Virus record (IMG/VR): IMGVR_UViG_2703718845_000006
Direction: 5' to 3' (one strand)
Source of the DNA: a virus
Taxonomy: Duplodnaviria > Heunggongvirae > Uroviricota > Caudoviricetes
DNA length: 45,755 nucleotides
Each line of letters starts with the position of its first letter. The first letter of the stretch is position 1. Positions 27,235 through 45,755 of this stretch are shown here, one piece after another. Both the position numbers and the translations under genes were made by a program. Below the pieces are notes generated by a model. It was not told the origin of the DNA, searched no databases, and worked only from the letters and a program-made list of their open reading frames with translations.

Positions 27235-28287
27235 TTATTTCCCCACCAGCTCGTTTATCTCTTTCACTGTCTGGTTAAACCGCTCTGACTCAAGCTCAAC
27301 ACCTAAGGCCCGACGCCCCAGCGCCATTGCTGCTTTTATTGTGGAACCGGATCCCATAAAAAAATCAGCAACCAGATCACCAGGTCGACTACTGGCATTG
27401 ATTATTTGCCTGAGCATATCCGCCGGTTTCTCACACGGATGTTTACCCGGGTAGAACTGAACGGGTTTATGCATCCAGACATCGGTATAAGGCACGGAGA
27501 CTGATACGGAGAAATAGCGCCGGAGAGATTTAAACTCATCCAGCAATTCAGAATATTTGCGATTCAGTGAATCATAAGATGCCACCAGCTGGTGGTGTGG
27601 TTGTTCCAGTTGTTGTTCCTGAAACTTCTCTGCCGCTATACGGGAAAACAGTGCCTGTAACTTCCGATAGTCAGCCTCATTCGGCAACTGCCACTGACTG
27701 GCACCAAACCAGTGGGAAACCATATTTTTCTTACCTGTGGCTTCGGCAATTTGTTTTGCCGTTATACCCAGTTCGGCACGAGCATCCCTGAAATACGATA
27801 TCAGCGGTGCCATTATGTGCTGTTTGAGTGCCCTTTCTTTTGCCGCATAGCCGTCACTTTTGCCGCGATATGGCCCCTGGTAATGTTCAGCAAACAGAAC
27901 GCGCTCTGTGGCAGGAAAATATGCGCGCAGACTTTCTTTATTACACCCATTCCAACGTCCGGACGGCTTCGCCCAGATGATATGGTTAAGCACGTTGAAA
28001 CGTTCACGCATCATGATCTCAATATCAGATGCCAGGCGATGCCCACAGAACAGGTAAAGGCTTCCGGCAGGTTTCAACACCCGCCAGAACTGGGCCAGAC
28101 AGTGGTCCAGCCACTTAAGGTAATCTTCGTCCCCTTTCCACTGATTGTCCCAACCGTTGGGTTTCACCTTGAAGTAAGGCGGATCGGTAACAATCAGGTC
28201 AATGGAATCATCAGGCAGGGACTGAATAAAATGCAGGCAATCAGCGTTGATTAAATCAACACTGTTTATTTTTACAGTATTTTTCAT
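27235..28287 (-). CDS. DNA methyltransferase, beta class (N6-adenine or N4-cytosine; YhdJ-like)
   Basis: DPPY motif (IVTDPPYF) near the N-terminus and AdoMet-binding FFMGSGST near the C-terminus (motif IV before I). Confidence 0.85.
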   Translation of the reverse strand: MKNTVKINSVDLINADCLHFIQSLPDDSIDLIVTDPPYFKVKPNGWDNQWKGDEDYLKWLDHCLAQFWRVLKPAGSLYLFCGHRLASDIEIMMRERFNVLNHIIWAKPSGRWNGCNKESLRAYFPATERVLFAEHYQGPYRGKSDGYAAKERALKQHIMAPLISYFRDARAELGITAKQIAEATGKKNMVSHWFGASQWQLPNEADYRKLQALFSRIAAEKFQEQQLEQPHHQLVASYDSLNRKYSELLDEFKSLRRYFSVSVSVPYTDVWMHKPVQFYPGKHPCEKPADMLRQIINASSRPGDLVADFFMGSGSTIKAAMALGRRALGVELESERFNQTVKEINELVGK

Positions 28288-28879: not shown

Positions 28880-30040
28880 ATGACTACACTCAAAGAACTC
28901 AAAGAAGAGCTTGCTCAGATACAAGATGAACACGCTAAGAACAGAAAAAAGGCTGAAATTGCAGCTTTAACCGCTTCCGCTGACAATGAAATCAGACTCG
29001 CTCAGAGAAACATTGGATACAATGTACGTGAGTGGACCGTTGAAGTCATTATTCAAAAGTATGGTGATAATATTGAAAATGACAAAAACGAGCTTTTTAT
29101 TCCAGATTATCAACGTGATTACAAGTGGGATACAAAAACAGCCTCTCGCTTTATAGAAAGTATTCTATTAGACTTTCCAATACCTTACCTTTACATTGCT
29201 GATGTATTTAATGAAGACCCTGAATTAGATGGTAGGGTAGAAATCATTGATGGTTCACAACGGATACGCTCTATTTATTATTTTTGGAACGATCAATTTG
29301 AGTTAAAGGATTTGAAAGAGCTTAAAAGTTTAGAAGGTTTCAAATTTTCAGATCTTTTAGCTAGCCGCCAAAGAAGATTTTTAAGAGCTTCACTAAGATT
29401 TATTGAGTTGAAAGGTGATGTTGAGGAACAACATAGAAGAGATTTATTTGAAAGGATCAACTCAGGTGTTAAAAGATTAGAAGCGATGGAAGTGAGGCAT
29501 GGCTCAGATGCTGCTACCTCAATGTTCTATAAAGATGTTGTGACCCCATGCTCAACAAACTCACTTTTTTCCCAACTAGCTCCATTATCAGACCGGAAAC
29601 GGTCGAATGGCGATCATCGTGAGTTAGTTTTGAGATTTTTTGCATATTTAAATGATTTAGAAAACTATAAGGGATTTGTCCGTCCCTTTATTGATAATTA
29701 TTTAAATGAACAAGCAGCAGCTGTGACTACTCAACAAGATGTTGATAATTTTAAACATGATTTTGAAATGATGCTTGCTTTTGTTGCTACCCATTTCCCT
29801 ATTGGCTTTAAAAAGACCGCAACAAGTAAAACCACCCCACGAGCCAGATACGAAGCCATTGCCGTGGGAACTGCACTTGCATTAAAAACTAACCCACAAC
29901 TCCAGAGTCCAGCCGTACCTGTAGGTGAATGGCTATTTGAAGAGGAATTTGAAACACTTGTTACTGCTGATAGTGCAAACAATACCAGCCAGCTAAAAAA
30001 CAGAATCTTTTACGTTAAAAATAAGTTGTTAGGGATTTAA
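28880..30040 (+). CDS. DUF262 (ParB-like nuclease/NTPase, GmrS-like) domain protein, 386 aa
   Basis: IPDYQRDYKW and DGSQR (aa 124-128, nt 29249-29263) match the DUF262 signature; AAGGAA RBS 8 nt before the ATG; AT-rich; no DUF1524/HNH-like C-terminal domain recognised. Confidence 0.85.
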   Translation: MTTLKELKEELAQIQDEHAKNRKKAEIAALTASADNEIRLAQRNIGYNVREWTVEVIIQKYGDNIENDKNELFIPDYQRDYKWDTKTASRFIESILLDFPIPYLYIADVFNEDPELDGRVEIIDGSQRIRSIYYFWNDQFELKDLKELKSLEGFKFSDLLASRQRRFLRASLRFIELKGDVEEQHRRDLFERINSGVKRLEAMEVRHGSDAATSMFYKDVVTPCSTNSLFSQLAPLSDRKRSNGDHRELVLRFFAYLNDLENYKGFVRPFIDNYLNEQAAAVTTQQDVDNFKHDFEMMLAFVATHFPIGFKKTATSKTTPRARYEAIAVGTALALKTNPQLQSPAVPVGEWLFEEEFETLVTADSANNTSQLKNRIFYVKNKLLGI

Positions 30041-30042
30041 AA

Positions 30043-30732
30043 ATGAGTCTAATTGATTTACGAGATGAATATGAAGAAAGAGCAAGAGACATTATGGAAC
30101 TGCTTTCTCTTGCATCATCTATAGAGATTCATACTCAGCAGTTAGATCCGCAAGCGCATCAAGATGAAATAGAATCTAATATCCTAAGGGTAAATATTTT
30201 AAAATCATCCGTTCATATGATGCTATATAATCAAGTTGAAAATACTGCCAGAGGTTGCATCGAGTCAATTTATGATCATTTACAAGATAATGAGGTGAAT
30301 TACGCATCACTCAGGGAGAAGCTTCAAGTAAATATATTACATAGAATTGTTTCAGATAATGAAACAGGGCAATCCCTTTATAAAAAGATAGGCACTGACA
30401 TTTCCAAAAGAATAATTTCAGCCTCATTGAATATTCGTAAAGAATTCAATGGTAATGTTTGCAAGCCTGTATTACACAAAATAACGCAGGCTTACGGAAT
30501 AACTATCGCAAACTCACCTGAATGTAGAAATGGTATTGACTTAGACTTGCTTAAGGATATCAGAAACGAACTCGCGCATGGAAGTACTAGCTTCTCTAAA
30601 AAGGGGCAAATTGACCCCTTAGAAGAAGTTAAGTCTAGAGCAGAGAGAGTTGATCTATATCTTCGTTTATTAATAAACTCAACTGAAGATTATATTATCT
30701 CTAACGGATATTTATCCCCTCAACATGCCTAA
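30043..30732 (+). CDS. HEPN-like protein (putative nuclease), 229 aa, translationally coupled to the DUF262 gene
   Basis: Starts 2 nt after the DUF262 stop; R-x4-H motif RNELAH at aa 174-179 (nt 30562-30579) in a predicted helical protein; 3' end overlaps the convergent methyltransferase gene by about 32 bp. Confidence 0.75.
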   Translation: MSLIDLRDEYEERARDIMELLSLASSIEIHTQQLDPQAHQDEIESNILRVNILKSSVHMMLYNQVENTARGCIESIYDHLQDNEVNYASLREKLQVNILHRIVSDNETGQSLYKKIGTDISKRIISASLNIRKEFNGNVCKPVLHKITQAYGITIANSPECRNGIDLDLLKDIRNELAHGSTSFSKKGQIDPLEEVKSRAERVDLYLRLLINSTEDYIISNGYLSPQHA

Positions 30733-31741
30733 CAAACGTTCTCCCTATTACTTGGCCAATTATAGGGGGAACAGCATTACCAATCATCGTTCCTAACTTT
30801 TGGAATGAAAAAGGCGTATTTTTTCCAATAAATTTATAATCCATAGGAAAAGATTGTAAAATAGCAGCTTCACGCAAAGTTATTGCTCTATTTTGCTCAG
30901 GATGTCCGAATCGCCCATTACCATATCCATAACATTGGGTAGTTATTGTAGGACTAGTATCGTCCCAAACCATCCGTCCATAAACACTTTTATAGGTAGC
31001 ACCTGAATGCTTTTTATGGCAATCCGCTCTAATTTCTTCAGGCCAATCATCCCACGTACCACCTGGTAAAGAGTGCAAGATTCGTTTAAGGTTAATATCC
31101 CTTAATTTAGGCGAACGATGCAATGGATCACTTTCGAGTTTCTCCCCTGCACCTATTTTTGGCAACTGACCAATAGCATCCTTTACTGTAACTTTACGGC
31201 TTACTTTTTTTTGATCAAGGCTGATTGGCCCCAATATGGACCCAATTAGAATTAATCTACGTCTATTTTGAGGCAAGCCATACTCGGAACATTTTACAAC
31301 GTCGTACCACAGATGATACCCAAGAGTCTTTAATACACTAACAAACTCTTCAAAAACCTTATGATTTCTAAGTTGAGGAACATTTTCCATAGTCACAAGC
31401 TCTGGCATGACATCACTTACAATCCTCTGAAACTCAGATAAAAGACGCCACTTTGTATCATCTTTTCTGCTATTTGGATTACGATACTTGGAAAACGGTT
31501 GGCAAGGGGCACAGCCTGCAAGTAATCTAATATTTCCTTCCTTGAACATAGCAGACACATCGCTGGATTGCAGTTCAGTAACTGACTGGTTAATGAACTT
31601 CGTTAAGGGATTATTGCTCTCAATAGCGAAACGGCAGGACTCATCAATATCAATGCCATGAGAAACTTCAATCCCGGCTTTTTTTAGCCCAAAAGTTAAG
31701 CCCCCTGCGCCACAAAAAATGTCTACTGCTTGAATGTTCAC
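30701..31741 (-). CDS. DNA (cytosine-5) methyltransferase
   Basis: Motif I FCGAGG, motif IV GCAPCQPFS (PCQ), motif VI ENV, motif VIII QNRRR, motif X GNAVPP; GTG start with GGAGA RBS; a TATAAT hexamer lies in the 80-bp gap after Q. Confidence 0.9.
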   Translation of the reverse strand: MNIQAVDIFCGAGGLTFGLKKAGIEVSHGIDIDESCRFAIESNNPLTKFINQSVTELQSSDVSAMFKEGNIRLLAGCAPCQPFSKYRNPNSRKDDTKWRLLSEFQRIVSDVMPELVTMENVPQLRNHKVFEEFVSVLKTLGYHLWYDVVKCSEYGLPQNRRRLILIGSILGPISLDQKKVSRKVTVKDAIGQLPKIGAGEKLESDPLHRSPKLRDINLKRILHSLPGGTWDDWPEEIRADCHKKHSGATYKSVYGRMVWDDTSPTITTQCYGYGNGRFGHPEQNRAITLREAAILQSFPMDYKFIGKNTPFSFQKLGTMIGNAVPPIIGQVIGRTFVRHVEGINIR

Positions 31742-31820: not shown

Positions 31821-32189
31821 TCATTGTATTAAATAAAAAAATGACAAGCATCCATCAATAAACCCCATAGCTGTTTGCATATCTTTTCGAACTGTTCCGT
31901 CTGAACATTTCCGCTTCTTTGCAATTGTACGGAGCGAAATGCCAACAACAAAGTGAGCAATTATCAGCTCATACTCTGCCGGCTTGTATTTACGCAACCT
32001 AGCGACACAACCGTCTATTATGATGCCCTCATCATCATCGCACTGAATCCGGGACTTTCTGCCATGAGGTAAAAGCCGCTTGAAGCCAGCAGCTACCGGT
32101 TGCCAGTCCACACCACTGTTTTCTGCAGCAGCCCATGCCCCCCAGCGGTCCAAAACTTCATACATATCACGCATCAACTTTCTCCACAA
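31821..32189 (-). CDS. Q: Late-gene antitermination protein Q (Phage_antitermQ family)
   Basis: 122 aa; VLDRWGAWAAA..DWQPVAAGFKRLLP..IQCDDDEG.IIDGCVARL..CSDGTV pattern of the small Q family found in E. coli prophages (as recalled). Confidence 0.85.
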   Translation of the reverse strand: MWRKLMRDMYEVLDRWGAWAAAENSGVDWQPVAAGFKRLLPHGRKSRIQCDDDEGIIIDGCVARLRKYKPAEYELIIAHFVVGISLRTIAKKRKCSDGTVRKDMQTAMGFIDGCLSFFYLIQ

Positions 32190-34017: not shown

Positions 34018-34407
34018 TCAGGCGGCTGCACCCGCCGGTTTCTCATACTTACTGATAGTGATCTCGACCTTCCCTTTCGGGATAACCGGTCCCCACTCCA
34101 CCAGCATTCTTTTCACCTGTCTGTCGTCTTCCCACACACCCGCGTGGGTCAGGGCGTCAAACAGCGCCTTGTTATAGTTGTCCAGATCGCGGATCCGGTT
34201 ATCCGGAGGAAACAACACGATCTCCACTGAAGCAGGTGCCGACGTTGGTTTTGGCAGACGACGTAACTGCTCAACTATTGCTGCGCACGCCGCGCTCTGA
34301 AATTTTCGCCCCGCCGCGCTTATCAGGCTCTTACCAGCAAATGCCCCTTTGTTGGGGTGTCGCCAGTAGGTGTTCACGCTGGGCGGGAAAGGCAGGATCA
34401 GCTTCAT
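34018..34407 (-). CDS. rusA: RusA-family Holliday junction resolvase
   Basis: 129 aa; FPPSVNTYWR...RIRDLDNYNKALFDALTHAGVWEDDRQV matches the RusA catalytic core. Confidence 0.9.
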   Translation of the reverse strand: MKLILPFPPSVNTYWRHPNKGAFAGKSLISAAGRKFQSAACAAIVEQLRRLPKPTSAPASVEIVLFPPDNRIRDLDNYNKALFDALTHAGVWEDDRQVKRMLVEWGPVIPKGKVEITISKYEKPAGAAA

Positions 34408-34730
34408 ACTTTCAGGCCTCTCTCATGTAACCAGTGAGTTGCACGCAGCCTTGCGTTTTCCTCACCGGCAAGCAGTGAGCGGATAATCCCGACCGCCTCG
34501 CTGTCGTCGTCCTTCACCGCGGTATGAAGCGTGATCCCCCGGGCCACACCACGCTTTATCGTGATGACGCCTTTTTTCTCCAGTGCGCGAAGATGCTCCA
34601 CCGCTGCATTCACCGAACGGTATCCCAGCATGGTTGCCACCTCCTGATTGGTTGGCGGGAAGCCACGCTCTTTCTGATAAGAAATCAGCATATCCAGCAC
34701 CTGCTGCTGGCATTGAGTTAACGTCGTCAT
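34404..34730 (-). CDS. Stand-alone LexA-type N-terminal DNA-binding domain protein (no peptidase domain)
   Basis: LTQCQQQVLDMLISYQKERGFPPTNQEVATMLGYRSVNAAVEHLRALEKKGVITIKRGVARGITL parallels the LexA winged-helix domain; 108 aa with no S24 Ser/Lys dyad. Confidence 0.7.
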   Translation of the reverse strand: MTTLTQCQQQVLDMLISYQKERGFPPTNQEVATMLGYRSVNAAVEHLRALEKKGVITIKRGVARGITLHTAVKDDDSEAVGIIRSLLAGEENARLRATHWLHERGLKV

Positions 34731-35380
34731 GCCGCCATCTCCCTGACCAGCTTTTCCGCCTGCAGGCGAACCTGCGCCAGAAACGCCTCACCACATGCCT
34801 CAAGTTCATCGCGCCCGATGTAGCTGATTGCCGGTCCCTTCCAGGTCTTGTCGAAAACAGCAATAGCACCAGCGAAGAAAGCGCCTGTCGGCACCTGCTT
34901 CTCATCCTTCGGGATAAACCAGGCAGGCAGTTCAAAACCAATACGCCCGCGAATAAAAGCAATATGATCTGCATCTTCCGGCCACCACACTTCGCTGGTG
35001 GCAGCTTTGATCAGGAAAACATAGCGCCCGCCCTTATCACGCATGGCACTGGCATGCTTCATGATGTAACGCATGCCGGTGATGTATTGCCCCTCATGCT
35101 GACTGGCGCGGCTGTATGGGGGATTTCCAAAGGCAGCACCTTTAAGCTCCGCAAGGCGTTCTGACCAGTCATGCGCCAGCGCGTTGTCTTCCGCCGTGTA
35201 ATACGCAGCACATTTGGCGTTATCACCGTCAGTGAACAGATCCAGAACAAACGGACCAAACAGGGTGTTAATTCCCCAGAAAATGTTGTCCGGCGTGCGC
35301 CACTGATCGCCCACTTCCTTCAGTTCATGGGCTGGTTTGTTCCGCAGTTCCACCAGCTCCTGGCAATATTTATTACTCAT
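34727..35380 (-). CDS. Phage-type DNA N6-adenine methyltransferase (Dam-like)
   Basis: W.TPDNIFWGINTLFGPFVLDLF...GNPPYS (NPPY motif); start taken at MSNKYCQ. Confidence 0.85.
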   Translation of the reverse strand: MSNKYCQELVELRNKPAHELKEVGDQWRTPDNIFWGINTLFGPFVLDLFTDGDNAKCAAYYTAEDNALAHDWSERLAELKGAAFGNPPYSRASQHEGQYITGMRYIMKHASAMRDKGGRYVFLIKAATSEVWWPEDADHIAFIRGRIGFELPAWFIPKDEKQVPTGAFFAGAIAVFDKTWKGPAISYIGRDELEACGEAFLAQVRLQAEKLVREMAA

Positions 35381-35874
35381 TAAGCCCCCACGTAATTCCC
35401 TGACAGATACCACTCATCACCCGATACAGCGCGCTTGCTGCTTTTCCGTAAACACTGCTCACGACGCGCCAGAAAATTGTTTCGTTCTGGCTGGGAGTGG
35501 CTTTCACGGAATGCCGCCATCCACACCGTTGCAGCACGACGGTATAAGCCCCTGGACTCCAGTTCTTCAGCCTGGCGGGTCAGGCATAAAATCTCCCGCG
35601 GGTCGTTAGTGCCGACATAGAAATTGCGCACAGGTCTGGTTTCACGAACTGGTTGCCGTTCCGCCTCCGGCGATATCTTTGTCTGGCGCGGGAAATGTCT
35701 GCGTGTATCCCCTTCACAACGGTGAGCCACACGCCCACTCTGACGTAACTTGCTTGCTGACTGCAGAACGCGCTGCCGTGAGTAACCTGCAAAAGCATCC
35801 GCAATGTCTCCGGAAGTACACCCCGGATGGGCTTCAATGAATTTCTGAACTTCATTCAAAAGACTCATGATCAC
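35380..35874 (-). CDS. Putative PerC-family transcriptional regulator
   Basis: LESRGLYRRAATVWMAAF resembles the PerC signature; 164 aa downstream of the replication gene. Confidence 0.45.
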   Translation of the reverse strand: MIMSLLNEVQKFIEAHPGCTSGDIADAFAGYSRQRVLQSASKLRQSGRVAHRCEGDTRRHFPRQTKISPEAERQPVRETRPVRNFYVGTNDPREILCLTRQAEELESRGLYRRAATVWMAAFRESHSQPERNNFLARREQCLRKSSKRAVSGDEWYLSGNYVGA

Positions 35875-36689
35875 CCCCTGAATCCTGCCGGGATCTGGCT
35901 GTAGTCCACGTTGTCGTAACTGGCTTTGAAGTACGGGTCCTCACGTCTGGCTGCAGATACCGCAGGAACTTCCCAGGATTCTTCGAAATGACGATCCGGA
36001 CCAAAGAACGTGACAGCCTGTTTCACAAATTGTGTGCCGCTGTTACCCATCGCAGATACCCAGCCCGCATAGCGTTTCACACCTTCCAGCATGGTTTCGG
36101 GGTTTACCCCCTCATTCAAACGGGCTTTCCAGGCTTTGAAGGCTGCAGATTTTGAATTGCCACCAGCACGTTTGGGATATGCCAGCCATGCCTGCTCAAA
36201 CTCCGGAGAGTATTCCGGTCGGTTTGAACGAACTCGCACAGACTCATCAGCAGATGCACCAACAGCTATTGGTTCATTGACTGGTTCTTTGACTGGTTCA
36301 AAAGAGTGACTGGTTCTGGGTGAATCTCCTGCACTACCCCCTAGTGCAACTCCTGCACTACCTGGTGAATTTGCTGCACCAGATAGTGAATTATTTGCAC
36401 TACCCCCTAGTGAATCTCCTGCACCATCCAGATGAAGGAGATAGATATTACTTGAGTTACCTTTTTCACCTTTCCGGGTGACTTTTTTTACCAGCCCGGA
36501 CTCACAAAGGGCCGCAATATGATTCATCACAGAACGTTTGCTAATCTCGCACTGGTCAGCAATATGCTGGTAGCTGGGCCAGCACTCACCCTGATCGCTG
36601 GCATTATCAGCCAGCTTGATCAGAACCAGTTTTCGCAATGGATTACCCACTCGAATTTTCATCGCTTTAACCATCAGCTCCATACTCAT
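35871..36689 (-). CDS. Replication initiation protein (O-like replisome organiser) with N-terminal winged-helix domain and internal repeat region
   Basis: N-terminal LRKLVLIKLADNASDQGECWPSYQHIADQCEISKRSVMNHIAALCESGLVKK; central Gly/Ser/Ala repeats encoded by DNA iterons; position downstream of cro/cII. Confidence 0.7.
   Translation of the reverse strand: MSMELMVKAMKIRVGNPLRKLVLIKLADNASDQGECWPSYQHIADQCEISKRSVMNHIAALCESGLVKKVTRKGEKGNSSNIYLLHLDGAGDSLGGSANNSLSGAANSPGSAGVALGGSAGDSPRTSHSFEPVKEPVNEPIAVGASADESVRVRSNRPEYSPEFEQAWLAYPKRAGGNSKSAAFKAWKARLNEGVNPETMLEGVKRYAGWVSAMGNSGTQFVKQAVTFFGPDRHFEESWEVPAVSAARREDPYFKASYDNVDYSQIPAGFRG
36278..36440. repeat. Iteron-like direct repeats inside the replication gene (candidate origin)
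   Basis: Three copies of TGACTGGTTC (36278, 36290, 36307) followed by about five ~21-24-bp units of the form (g)aatctCCTGCACtaCCccctaGTG (36322-36430). Confidence 0.6.
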
Positions 36690-36910
36690 GCTGCACCTCC
36701 GAGATGCTTCATGTTTTTTCCGGAGCGAAAGGTTATAAGCGGCATACTGACGCGGTAATTACGGCCCAGCGGTTCACAAATCACCTTCTGACATTCACGG
36801 TCCACCAGGCTAACACGTAGAACATGCCCTGCAGGTGTGGTGTACCACTGACCCGGACGAGGACAACGGAAAGTCTGATTGGTAAACCGTTTGAAAATAT
36901 TCCGGATCAT
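36686..36910 (-). CDS. Hypothetical small protein
   Basis: 74-aa ORF between the Rha-domain ORF and the replication gene; no recognised motif. Confidence 0.35.
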   Translation of the reverse strand: MIRNIFKRFTNQTFRCPRPGQWYTTPAGHVLRVSLVDRECQKVICEPLGRNYRVSMPLITFRSGKNMKHLGGAA

Positions 36911-38058
36911 TTGCGCCCCCTTACCTCTGAAGGGTTCAGCGACAAATTTATGAGGCAGGCCAGTGCCGAAGCATCATTAATATAGTCATACAAGCTAACA
37001 GCCAGCGGAGATTCGGCTTTTGCCAACATAGGATAAAGCTGCTGCAGCCAGACCTGATGAATTGATGAAATGTAGGAACAGAGAACGCTGGCGTTATGTG
37101 CAACGTCGCTCGGTACAGCGGGCTTTGAAAGCTGTTTCTCCATCTGGTTAAAGGCATTGATGTATGCCTCTTTGAACTGGGCAGCACGTTTACCCGTGAA
37201 ACCCATAGCAAGAAACGCAAAGCCGTCGCGGGTTATTTGATAGCAAGGTAGTTTGCGGCCTGTGCAATCGGTGTAATCACTCACCGAAAAATTGCGGGCA
37301 GTGAATGATGCGGAACATTCAAGCGTGCGGATCTTTTTCAGTACATCGTCATGACGTTTGGAGAAGAAGTTGGCAACAGCCAGGGATGAAGTAACAGCCT
37401 GACCATCAACGATGGCAATTTCAGGTTGAGTGAGGGTTGGGATCGTAGCCATGATGGCAGCCTCTTTGGTGATTTTTAATAACTCACCACCAAGGCTTTC
37501 CACGACCTTATTGGTGGTGAGACGTACAGGGGTGGAAATACCGGTCACCAAAGAACCCGGCCCAACCGAAGTTGGCCCTGCACGCCCCACCATAATTTGG
37601 GCGTAATGCTGCTCATGACACAAAAAAACCGCAAGAGCGCGGTTGTGCGCTTTGGTGAATTCCGGGTTTCCACGCCCGGCACCCGCTTTATAAGGTGCCT
37701 GAACAGTGTAACGTCCCGGAATGGCAGAATCAATGTGCTGGTGGTCCTTCACACTCAACAAAATCACGCCTGAATTTCCACAAAGGACTAAAGCATTCAT
37801 GCGGGTAGTCTTTGCGAAGATAGATAACGCGCTGTGTTTCTGGCTCCCAACGAATAACATGAACATAAAGTCCTCTTCCGTCACGAAACCAGCGGTTAAG
37901 TTCCTGCACAACTCGCCCCCCACAGTCAGGTAAAGTTCTCTGTGGTTACTTACAGCCAGGTGATTTGGTAATCTGCATTCATGCCGTAACAACAGGTGTG
38001 CAGCGACACTGACCACCAGCTGTTGCGACAAACGGTTATTTGCCGTTAAACTGTTCAT
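36907..38058 (-). CDS. Rha-family phage regulatory protein; the N-terminal ~200 codons of the ORF are unassigned and the true start is uncertain (possibly MATIPTLTQ near 37446)
   Basis: The C-terminal half has a Phage_pRha-like block (QAVTSSLAVANFFSKRHDDVLKKIRTL...GRKLPCYQITRDGFAFLAMGFTGKRAAQFKEAYINAFNQME). Confidence 0.6.
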   Translation of the reverse strand: MNSLTANNRLSQQLVVSVAAHLLLRHECRLPNHLAVSNHRELYLTVGGELCRNLTAGFVTEEDFMFMLFVGSQKHSALSIFAKTTRMNALVLCGNSGVILLSVKDHQHIDSAIPGRYTVQAPYKAGAGRGNPEFTKAHNRALAVFLCHEQHYAQIMVGRAGPTSVGPGSLVTGISTPVRLTTNKVVESLGGELLKITKEAAIMATIPTLTQPEIAIVDGQAVTSSLAVANFFSKRHDDVLKKIRTLECSASFTARNFSVSDYTDCTGRKLPCYQITRDGFAFLAMGFTGKRAAQFKEAYINAFNQMEKQLSKPAVPSDVAHNASVLCSYISSIHQVWLQQLYPMLAKAESPLAVSLYDYINDASALACLINLSLNPSEVRGRK

Positions 38059-38606
38059 GCGTTAGTTTCTCCACAGACACAAAACGCCACGACGCCCGGA
38101 GCTGCACACTCGCGGGCGTCACTCTTTTCTGGAGCGCAGAAAATTTTGTAGACCAGTGCCGCATGCTCCTGGAGCTTCGAAATTGACAGATACAATTCAT
38201 CATTAATTGCTGTCTGCTCGTGTGGCTCCACTACCCCATCTTCGATTGCCGAACGAATCTGCTTTGAGTAACTCCCGATCTGTTCGATGACTTCCAGCAG
38301 GCGCTGGTTTATATCTGCGTTCTCTACTTCCTCAATTTCAGGAAGCGATACAAACACCCCACCAGCAGACTGTGCGACAGCATCCGCAATGTAGTGAGTG
38401 CCAGCAGCACGCTGTAAAATCATTGCCCATCCCAGCGGGAAAATCTGATCGCCATCTGCACGAAGGCGGTTGAATAAAGCGTTCTCTGTAACATCCAGCC
38501 ACTCAGCAGCTTCAGCGTAACCCCCCGGCAACGCCGCGATAGTTTTTCTGACAGCTTTCACGTACCACTCAGGCTGTTTTTCCACTTTCCAGTGATGATT
38601 ACCCAC
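38055..38606 (-). CDS. Putative CII-like regulatory protein (by position downstream of cro)
   Basis: 183-aa ORF overlapping the cro 3' end by a few nt; assignment is mainly by position. Confidence 0.45.
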   Translation of the reverse strand: MGNHHWKVEKQPEWYVKAVRKTIAALPGGYAEAAEWLDVTENALFNRLRADGDQIFPLGWAMILQRAAGTHYIADAVAQSAGGVFVSLPEIEEVENADINQRLLEVIEQIGSYSKQIRSAIEDGVVEPHEQTAINDELYLSISKLQEHAALVYKIFCAPEKSDARECAAPGVVAFCVCGETNA

Positions 38607-38956: not shown

Positions 38957-39649
38957 ATGAACATAGGAAACCGAGTCAGACAACTTCGCCAGGCGAAGAA
39001 CATGAAAATCGCCGATCTCGCTGAAGCAATAGGAGTGGATGCGGCGAATATCTCACGCCTGGAAACAGGTAAGCAGAAACAATTCACTGAACAAGCCCTG
39101 AGTAATATTGCCAGGAGCTTAGGTGTTGATATTGCTGATCTCTTTACCTCAGACGTCAAAAGTAATACTGTATGTAAAAACAGTATTAGTGAGGATGTTG
39201 CGCAGGTGAAGGATGTATTCCGTATTGAAATGCTGGATGTCAGTGCCAGTGCGGGAAATGGCCTTATCCAGGGCGGTGATGTCATTGATGTGATTCATGC
39301 CATTGAATACAGAACTGATAATGCTGTATCGATGTTTGGCGGACGGCCAGCCAATCACATTAAAGTTATCAACGTTCGTGGGGACAGTATGTGTCCAACC
39401 ATTGAGCCAGGAGATCTCATCTTCGTTGATGTCAGTATCAATCAGTTTGATGGAGATGGTATCTATGTATTTGGTTTTGATGATAAAATTTATGTCAAAC
39501 GACTGCAAATGATACCTGACAAACTACTGGTGATTTCTGATAACCAGATTTACCGTGAATGGGGAATTACCAGCGAAAATGAACACCGGTTTATGGTCTT
39601 TGGAAAGGTCTTAATCAGCCAGTCACAAACCCTTAAGCGACACAATTAA
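38957..39649 (+). CDS. cI: CI-type prophage repressor (HTH + S24 LexA-like autopeptidase domain)
   Basis: N-terminal HTH VRQLRQAKNMKIADLAEAIGVDAANISRLETG; C-terminal S24 domain with GDSM and a downstream Lys (VKRL). Confidence 0.9.
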   Translation: MNIGNRVRQLRQAKNMKIADLAEAIGVDAANISRLETGKQKQFTEQALSNIARSLGVDIADLFTSDVKSNTVCKNSISEDVAQVKDVFRIEMLDVSASAGNGLIQGGDVIDVIHAIEYRTDNAVSMFGGRPANHIKVINVRGDSMCPTIEPGDLIFVDVSINQFDGDGIYVFGFDDKIYVKRLQMIPDKLLVISDNQIYREWGITSENEHRFMVFGKVLISQSQTLKRHN

Positions 39650-44531: not shown

Positions 44532-45755
44532 TCAGTTGGGGTCTGAGCTAGCACAAGTAATGATCGATTCAACCCTCTCCCACCACGCCTGGTAGGCTTT
44601 ACGCTGTTCTTCTAGATAATCGCTCTTGTCATAAACCTGCCAAACCCCTGGCAGTTTATGGCCGAGCATTATTTCTGCAATATGAGGAGCAGTAAGATCA
44701 GAAAAGTTTGTTCGTGCTGTTCGCCTCAAATCATGAAGAGACCAATGAGGGAATTGATACCCCAAACTCCGCCATGCGTACTGCATTAAATTGTAAGGCA
44801 GCGACTGCAATGATGTTCGACCAACGGGTTCCCTGCTTCCTTCCTTAGTAAAAAGCATATCGGAACCATTGTTCATAGAGATAGCGTTCTTTATAAGCTC
44901 CTCCACCGGTTCAATAATGGGCCTCTTTAGCGGTTCGCCTGTTATCTCCCCAGTCTTATGTCGTTCTGGTGGTACAGTCCATACCTTATTAATGAAATCA
45001 AAATCGTCCACCCTGGCAGTAATTAGCTCTGAACTACGGCAGCCAAAATGCAGCAATAGCTTAATGAAGGCCCGGTATTTAGGAACCATTCGAGAACCAT
45101 CGATCGCAGCATAAAGGATTTTAATTTCATCATGTGTCAGAAACCGTTTCTTCTGACCTTTACGGATATCCATATCTTTACCCGTGATATCCGACAGCGG
45201 GCGAGTTTCAATGAGCTTTCTCTTATACGCCCAGACATGGGCCTGCTTTGCGTTAATTAGCAATCGGTCTGCTATTGCTGGAGTCTTAGTGCTAAGAGGC
45301 TCCAGGACTTCTAACCAATCATGCAATGTAGCTGCATCGTGAGGGATATTCCCGATTTTAGAGAACAGGTGCAGCTCAAACGAGCGGAGTATCTGTTCAG
45401 AACCTTTTTTATTTTTTACACAATATGCTTCATACCAGGCACGGATCACAGACTCTACCGTCATGGCTTCAGTAGCTTTTCGTTTTTCAGCCTGCTTGAC
45501 AAATCGTGGATTACGGTTTGACTCAAGTTCACCACGGAGACGAATAACTTCTTCTCTGGCCTCTTTTAATCCAGTTGCCGGGTAAGTTCCGATATCAAGA
45601 CGCTCACCTTTCCCTGCCCATTGATAACGATATTGGAACACTACGCGACCTTTCGGTGATACTCTGACAGACAGACCATCACGATCGGATTTAACCAAAA
45701 CCTTATCACGTTCCTTTCCAACGACTGAACGCAACCACGCATCAGACAGCGCCAT
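44532..45755 (-). CDS. int: Tyrosine integrase, P4-like (N-terminal arm-binding DUF4102-like domain + catalytic domain)
   Basis: N-terminus MALSDAWLRSV..VFQYRYQWAGKGERLDIGTYP resembles P4-type integrases; catalytic region has R (HFGCRSSE), H-x-x-R (HDLRRTART) and a C-terminal Tyr region (WQVYDKSDY); the ATG is at the last base of the window. Confidence 0.9.
   Translation of the reverse strand: MALSDAWLRSVVGKERDKVLVKSDRDGLSVRVSPKGRVVFQYRYQWAGKGERLDIGTYPATGLKEAREEVIRLRGELESNRNPRFVKQAEKRKATEAMTVESVIRAWYEAYCVKNKKGSEQILRSFELHLFSKIGNIPHDAATLHDWLEVLEPLSTKTPAIADRLLINAKQAHVWAYKRKLIETRPLSDITGKDMDIRKGQKKRFLTHDEIKILYAAIDGSRMVPKYRAFIKLLLHFGCRSSELITARVDDFDFINKVWTVPPERHKTGEITGEPLKRPIIEPVEELIKNAISMNNGSDMLFTKEGSREPVGRTSLQSLPYNLMQYAWRSLGYQFPHWSLHDLRRTARTNFSDLTAPHIAEIMLGHKLPGVWQVYDKSDYLEEQRKAYQAWWERVESIITCASSDPN

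Follow-up and report, generated by a model that had tools for sequence, protein, structure and literature searches.

The window analysed here, the whole 45,755-nucleotide (nt) stretch of IMG/VR virus record IMGVR_UViG_2703718845_000006, is a lambdoid Escherichia coli prophage with an integrase gene (44532-45755) at one end. The cI gene (38957-39649) lies on the plus strand with cro/cII beside it, and the minus strand then runs through an O-like replication gene, PerC, Dam, a 108-amino-acid (aa) protein with a LexA-type DNA-binding domain, RusA, KilA-N, DUF968/HNH and Q. Methylases, a defence-like insert, lysis genes and structural genes lie beyond Q. The early region is 96 to 98% identical to that of phages mEp460, Stx2a_WGPS2, PhiR40_1 and others. 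The 108-aa protein, given the working name LexN, is the subject of this analysis (Table 1). By gene order it sits between Dam and RusA in the nin-equivalent region, which is where an earlier, sequence-only reading of this DNA had placed it.

The LexN gene starts with ATG, has the Shine-Dalgarno sequence GGGAG 8 nt upstream and shares its first and last codons with its neighbours in ATGA overlaps. A simple promoter scan detected no promoter upstream of LexN on its own strand. The gene reads as an internal, translationally coupled member of the early-right (PR) operon and, as it has no promoter of its own and sits in that operon, would in this phage be made after cI is lost.

Residues 1 to 68 of LexN are a full-length LexA winged helix, at a level of similarity far beyond chance. 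The Pfam family LexA_DNA_bind (PF01726) is matched from end to end (residues 1 to 65 against model positions 1 to 65 of 65; E = 2.9e-19, 69 bits against a cut-off of 23.7), and phmmer aligned residues 2 to 69 without a gap to the N-terminal domain (NTD) of E. coli LexA in the PDB (1LEA, E = 6.9e-16; 51% identity). The AlphaFold2 (AF2) model, based on an 18-sequence alignment, has a mean predicted local distance difference test (pLDDT) score of 79 and shows the expected three helices and two-stranded wing. Foldseek superimposed it on 1LEA and on the LexA-DNA complexes 3JSO and 3JSP to within 1.1 to 1.3 Å over 66 to 68 residues at about 51% identity. In E. coli LexA the base contacts of helix III are made by Ser39, Asn41, Ala42, Glu44 and Glu45 (PMC3091678). 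LexN has S39, N41, A42, V44 and E45 at these positions, so that four of the five are identical and E44 is replaced by valine, and R64-G65 in the wing is also kept. Alignment to LexA thus bears out the claim that LexN reproduces the LexA N-terminal winged helix, including the recognition helix SVNAAVEHLRALEK.

The absence of an autopeptidase domain, also claimed from the sequence alone, was confirmed. LexN, which ends at residue 108, has no Pfam match to Peptidase_S24, and the lexA equivalog model TIGR00498 is matched only at positions 1 to 91 of 203 (70.8 bits, under the cut-off of 110.95). As the S24 autopeptidase is missing, LexN does not cleave itself in response to RecA*, in agreement with the suggestion that it cannot be cleaved through RecA. 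The cleaved N-terminal fragment of LexA (residues 1 to 84) and the LexA(Ind-) mutants, both established in E. coli genetics, are likewise LexA DNA-binding moieties that RecA* cannot inactivate. Unlike the 1-84 fragment, LexN has an additional, conserved module and is maintained in evolution. Cleavage of LexA lowers its affinity for DNA and uncovers residues that mark it for ClpXP and Lon (PMC3159453). Relative to E. coli LexA (1LEA, 1JHH, 3JSO), LexN also lacks Ser119 and Lys156, has a private tail instead of the S24 autopeptidase/dimerisation domain and, in the window clade, is encoded in the early-right operon of a prophage and is not autoregulated from SOS boxes of its own.

The tail follows a short linker (residues 69 to 74) that AF2 predicts with low confidence (disordered), and its two helices are modelled at a pLDDT of about 86 to 88. 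Its hydrophobic face is nearly invariant (positions 79, 80, 82, 83, 86, 87, 93, 97, 100 and 101). The tail is kept in relatives of 38 to 50% identity from Cronobacter, Kosakonia, Enterobacter, Cedecea, Klebsiella, Salmonella and Citrobacter prophages, and members from seven enterobacterial genera have the consensus EAVxxIRALLAGEENARxRAxxWLxxRG in common. The tail belongs to no Pfam family, and a search of the PDB with the tail profile gave nothing significant (best E = 0.67). Judged by these comparisons it is family-specific, not LexA sequence, and stands in place of the LexA C-terminal domain (CTD). For an amphipathic, conserved hairpin on a protein descended from a dimeric DNA-binding ancestor, the simplest reading is that it would act as a substitute dimerisation module. 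HMMER aligns LexN residues 2 to 90 to LexA residues 2 to 86 and so sets the 'AGE' of LexN, with A88-G89, opposite the scissile A84-G85 of LexA. A88-G89 is missing from most of the distant family members, and the model puts it at the turn of the tail hairpin, right after helix 75-87. A cleavage-site mimic was rejected as a family feature on both counts, and A88-G89 is treated as a vestige.

Table 1. LexN, its parts, its operon partners and candidate SOS boxes in the window
Feature	Position	Strand	Basis
LexN, complete gene for the 108-aa stand-alone LexA DNA-binding-domain protein, stop codon included	34404..34730	-	Open reading frame (ORF) list; PF01726, E = 2.9e-19; phrog_362 over full length, E = 1.1e-59; ratio of nonsynonymous to synonymous substitution rates (dN/dS) 0.04
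Winged helix-turn-helix (HTH), residues 1-68: helices 6-22, 28-35, 40-52; wing strands 56-58, 66-68	34527..34730	-	AF2; Foldseek; alignment
Recognition helix SVNAAVEHLRALEK, residues 39-52; S39, N41, A42 and E45 kept, E44 replaced by V	34575..34616	-	Alignment; PMC3091678; family conservation
Family-specific two-helix hairpin, residues 75-108: helices 75-87 and 93-102	34407..34508	-	AF2; column conservation
ATGA overlap of dam stop and LexN start (translational coupling)	34727..34730	-	Sequence; ORF coordinates
ATGA overlap of LexN stop and rusA start	34404..34407	-	Sequence; rusA synteny count
Dam, phage DNA N6-adenine methyltransferase, upstream operon partner	34727..35413	-	Pfam PF05869, E = 1.2e-45
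RusA Holliday-junction resolvase, downstream operon partner	34018..34407	-	Pfam PF05866, E = 1.3e-14
O-like replication gene	35871-36689	-	ORF list; Pfam
Q	31821-32189	-	ORF list; Pfam
Canonical SOS box TACTGTATGTAAAAACAGTA inside the cI ORF, candidate target only	39166..39185		Conserved independently of the LexN gene
SOS-like box CACTGTTTATTTTTACAGTA, codons 3-9 of the N6_N4 methylase gene, late region, candidate target only	28260..28279		Also in phages without the LexN gene

The phrog_362 profile covers LexN residues 1 to 108 with its positions 1 to 106 of 106, so that LexN, tail included, is a member of PHROG 362. This is the family that appears at NCBI as the 'LexA family transcriptional regulator' (about 106 to 111 aa) of lambdoid prophages, a name based on homology only. 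The comparative set comprised 250 viral loci in four clades of the family, three of which (window type, Enterobacter type and Cronobacter type) have proteins of 106 to 111 aa. Pairwise dN/dS values of 0.04 for the window clade (36 distinct alleles), 0.20 for the Enterobacter type and 0.17 for the Cronobacter type show that purifying selection acts on the gene. At 90% nucleotide identity or more it is found in 2233 of 5426 complete E. coli genomes (about 41%), with up to four copies per genome, and it is intact in 2222 complete genomes. The annotation there is almost always 'LexA family transcriptional regulator', with 'phage N-6-adenine-methyltransferase' on one side and 'RusA family crossover junction endodeoxyribonuclease' on the other. 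In the comparative set, Dam is found next upstream solely in the window clade (55 of 80 loci).

The gene was also found in 61 phage records, with an identical or nearly identical protein in 50. Carriers include mEp460 (mEp460_046, 'LexA DNA binding domain protein'), SfII (SfII_44), SfV, SfIV, cdtI, Stx2a_WGPS2 and many Stx2c phages. LexN is 100% identical to the mEp460 protein over residues 1 to 107 and to the proteins of SKA5, Kati and several Stx2c phages over all 108 residues, and 97 to 98% identical to the SfII and SfV homologues. The gene is therefore already known as a sequence and as a homology-based annotation. LexN matches no known defence protein in PADLOC.

A fourth clade has proteins of 130 to 135 aa, about 41 to 42% identical to LexN, which share its tail and have an N-terminal extension that is disordered. 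In 27 of 28 loci of this sister clade a high-quality CTGT-N8-ACAG box is located no more than 2.3 kb upstream of the start codon, and in 24 of the 28 it is about 440 to 640 bp upstream. The box overlaps or abuts a -10 element that has a -35 element at the correct distance, as in the locus L155, where TTGACC-N15-TATACTGTTTATTTATACAGTA is followed by a ribosome-binding site (RBS) and ATG. From locus to locus the arms of the box stay the same and its 8-nt spacers and flanks change, which is the pattern predicted by selection on a LexA operator. The first gene after the SOS-box promoter is in 18 of 34 loci a homologue of DinI (PF06183, E = 8e-22), a known SOS damper that acts on the co-protease activity of RecA. 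The unit is arranged as (dinI), phrog_1813, the LexA-domain gene, phrog_1212, (rusA), DUF968 and Q. The sister-clade gene is thus part of a unit under SOS-box control that often also includes this damper; this is circumstantial, and is the strongest new evidence for an SOS role of the family.

The prophages with this unit come from Klebsiella, Cedecea and Enterobacter (L143-L169; for example, L155 7290-8530 and L143 7530-8980), and in them Q and the late-gene pathway may be directly reachable from a LexA-controlled promoter. In phage Eeyore (L004, 16100-17245) and in L003 (16245), which have the cI type of the window, SOS boxes adjoin dinI and umuD-like genes towards the integrase end. Phages of this cI group seem to carry SOS-linked accessory genes repeatedly.

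The window itself contains three CTGT-N8-ACAG sites against 0.4 to 0.6 expected, and two of the three are good boxes; the other spacings tested (0 to 20) gave at most two sites each, with similar expectations. One box, TACTGTATGTAAAAACAGTA, which differs from the umuDC operator by one base, is at cI codons 70 to 76, in the linker that joins the HTH and S24 domains; the SASAG cleavage motif follows about 25 codons later. In 30 of 30 cI homologues with at least 70% aa identity the box keeps this codon position, with invariant arms and varying spacers, and it is also present in the cI genes of ST64B (sb38) and Klebsiella P7641, whose DNA is only 70 to 76% identical. The second, CACTGTTTATTTTTACAGTA, is in a methylase gene (27235-28287, minus strand) between Q and the lysis genes; Citrobacter phage phiNP has an identical box where its 'dam' gene starts, and the box is present in 25 related viral loci. 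The ST64B, Klebsiella P7641 and phiNP loci do not have the LexN gene, and a role of either box as a dedicated LexN operator is accordingly not supported. They are probably host-LexA sites and, for LexN, candidate targets only.

Upstream of the cI box is an invariant TTTACC-17 nt-TACTGT, and the next in-frame methionine of cI is M92. This arrangement could be an internal promoter in cI, and one idea is that an SOS-derepressed transcript from it would give a C-terminal cI fragment without the DNA-binding domain. No explanation for an SOS box inside cI was found in the literature searched.

Since its head is LexA-like at the base contacts, the protein is uncleavable and it has a conserved, putative pairing module of its own, LexN is tentatively regarded, at somewhat less than an even chance, as a RecA-insensitive LexA surrogate that occupies CTGT-type operators once host LexA is cleaved. 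How it pairs, which DNA it targets, in which direction it regulates and what the physiological gain is are inferred as follows. LexN would be expressed only after cI repression lifts, or early in infection, at a time when host LexA is depleted. It would pair through its amphipathic tail, through LexA-like, DNA-dependent NTD-NTD contacts, or through both. Paired LexN would then sit on CTGT-type, SOS-box-like operators and, being uncleavable, would re-impose repression on LexA-controlled promoters while host LexA is destroyed. Putative targets are the host SOS regulon, LexA-controlled antirepressors and colicins of co-resident elements and possibly the SOS boxes of the phage itself.

LexA binds to its target sites in dimeric form, with the determinants of dimerisation and cleavage in the CTD, and the NTDs of DNA-bound LexA additionally form an interface with each other (PMC3159453). 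LexN could, by analogy, reproduce the latter interface. The proposal that LexN forms heterodimers with host LexA fails for the normal interface, as the CTD with its dimerisation determinants (PMC3159453) is absent; a CTD-type heterodimer was rejected for this reason, and only a DNA-dependent NTD-NTD contact remains conceivable for pairing of LexN with LexA. The sequence-only reading also suggested that LexN could modulate SOS-dependent induction, which can stand only in a qualified form. Being made after cI loss, from an early-right operon and without a promoter of its own, LexN would have no influence on the initial induction decision of its own prophage. It could still affect the SOS state of the cell, co-resident elements and later steps.

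A bolder version of the surrogate proposal, possible but rather doubtful, concerns what such a protein would do for its carriers. An uncleavable LexA mimic present in about 40% of E. coli genomes would re-silence LexA-controlled promoters after derepression (in the sister clade, upon the SOS trigger itself), truncate the host SOS response and hold down the LexA-controlled antirepressors, colicins or defence genes of rivals. It would thus be an anti-SOS device acting at the level of DNA and serving competition between prophages, with a previously undescribed helical dimerisation module.

Several observations weigh against a LexA surrogate. The benefit of SOS repression in a cell already committed to lysis is hard to see. 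Within the window no SOS box adjoins LexN, the cI and methylase boxes occur just as well in phages without the gene, and host LexA fully accounts for the boxes of the sister clade. No member of the family retains E44, and in some members E45 is replaced by L, G, D or I, A42 by T or G and N41 by Y. The proteins with varied contacts include many of the dinI-linked sister-clade proteins, notably with E45 changed to leucine, and the specificity of the family may therefore differ from that of LexA. The sole characterized truncated LexA homologue of a phage, gp6 of GIL01, binds a different palindrome and activates transcription. No functional or experimental study of this enterobacterial family was found in the full-text literature searched.

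The same variation at the contact residues would be expected if specificity were diversifying, and so favours the main alternative, which we consider possible though doubtful. In this, LexN would be a phage-specific transcription factor, either a repressor or an activator, with a winged helix that derives from LexA but has shifted to an operator of its own, and it would time a phage promoter, leaving the host SOS regulon alone. The position of the gene just upstream of Q and the late region fits this, and there is a precedent in gp6. GIL01 is a tectivirus of a Gram-positive host (Bacillus) whose lysogeny is held by host LexA, and its gp6 is, like LexN, a LexA-type winged helix without a protease domain that is expressed with the early genes; its binding site is GaCACAnnTGTGaC at -43.5, and it is an activator of the late promoter P3 (PMC6182141). 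However, the recognition helix of gp6, VSHKTAHRYL, differs from LexA at four of the five contacts, so that gp6 keeps one of five against four of five in LexN. The position of its Lys38 is aligned with N41 of LexN, whose helix is LexA-like. Furthermore, gp6 has only 66 aa and ends at the wing, with nothing like the 34-residue helical tail of LexN, and BLASTP gave no alignment between the two proteins at E ≤ 100. LexN was therefore rejected as a member of a gp6 family. An unbiased search for palindromes shared by 216 gene-bearing loci of three clades yielded no candidate for a private operator; its only results were a repeat at the junction of cII and the next gene and, at the 3' end of rusA, a GC hairpin.

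The arrangement of the operon suggests instead that LexN may assist the RusA resolvase, or recombination or replication functions of the nin region, as an accessory or architectural DNA-binding protein. Lambda NinH, a small DNA-binding protein encoded beside the Rap nuclease, offers an analogy, and the LexN gene is directly 5' of rusA, with overlapping stop and start, in 80 of 80 window-type, 80 of 80 Enterobacter-type and 38 of 56 Cronobacter-type loci. This linkage may, however, merely reflect joint inheritance of a cassette. With the RusA of the window as query, rusA was detectable in only five of 34 sister-clade loci, and in L143 phrog_1212 separates it from the LexA-domain gene. Retention of sequence-specific LexA contacts would not be expected in an architectural protein, and a partnership with RusA is judged unlikely. 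Less probable still is a poison or decoy of host LexA, acting through inactive heterodimers or through Ala88-Gly89 as a pseudo-substrate for S24 proteases (LexA, cI and UmuD). The alignment of 'AGE' with the LexA cleavage site and the contacts between DNA-bound LexA NTDs (PMC3159453) would suit it, but LexN lacks the CTD with the dimerisation determinants, and Ala-Gly is not conserved in distant members and is placed at the turn after helix 75-87 in the model. Least probable of all is a functionless, decaying remnant of a full-length lexA-like repressor gene, as the resemblance of LexN in length and homology to the first 90 residues of LexA might suggest. With dN/dS of 0.04 to 0.20, a private tail conserved across seven genera, a proper RBS, coupled start and stop codons and an intact reading frame in more than two thousand E. 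coli genomes, this is effectively refuted.

DinI and PsiB of the F plasmid are SOS modulators of mobile elements. Others that act without being LexA are GIL01 gp7 (PMC6182141) and the Listeria phage protein AriS (PMC9043618), and LexN may share with all of these the purpose of tuning or shutting down the host SOS response. All four act on the RecA or LexA protein, whereas LexN would act on DNA as an operator-binding mimic of LexA and, if a surrogate, would add this direct class to the known modulators. If LexN binds SOS boxes, a large share of E. coli strains, among them lysogens of Shigella serotype-converting and Shiga-toxin (Stx) phages, would carry a second SOS repressor that RecA cannot remove. 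This could shape mutagenesis, antibiotic-induced SOS responses, induction of Stx phages and colicins and competition among co-resident prophages. Should its operator be private instead, LexN would follow GIL01 gp6 as the second, independent instance in which a phage has turned the LexA head into a regulator of its own. The points to carry forward are the LexA recognition residues, kept in LexN unlike in gp6, the private conserved tail and the sister clade behind an SOS-box promoter with dinI.

An exhaustive protein search also returned many proteins of 140 to 350 aa with two LexA_DNA_bind-like stretches in one chain (P0132, P0133, P0149, P0152, P0153 and others). This suggests tandem duplication of LexA heads as another route to a 'dimer' without the S24 domain.

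Other genes of the window are of separate interest. Between Q and the lysis genes, on the plus strand (28880-30732), a GmrSD_N-domain protein (PADLOC NsnA, E = 6e-45; PD-T4-2_A, E = 5e-27) is followed by a HEPN protein (PF18737), and the two are probably a prophage-borne anti-phage defence pair. The window encodes three DNA methyltransferases: a C5-cytosine methylase directly after Q (30701-31741, minus strand), the N6/N4 methylase before the lysis genes (27235-28287, minus strand) and the nin-region Dam (34727-35413).

The 'Rha' ORF (36907-38058, minus strand; 383 aa) is annotated as a single gene in mEp460 and has Ash and Rha domains only in residues 117 to 308. A hairpin and T-run resembling an intrinsic terminator (37627-37644) lie on the Rha strand inside this ORF, upstream of the Ash and Rha domains. 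The annotation may place the start of Rha too far upstream, and a tR1-like terminator is one possibility for the hairpin. The palindrome AAACTGTTCATGCGTTAGTTT (38048-38068) spans the stop codon of the cII-like gene and the start of the next. Its AAACT-N11-AGTTT repeat is present in 34 to 89% of loci in all four clades examined, and probably marks a conserved gene junction.

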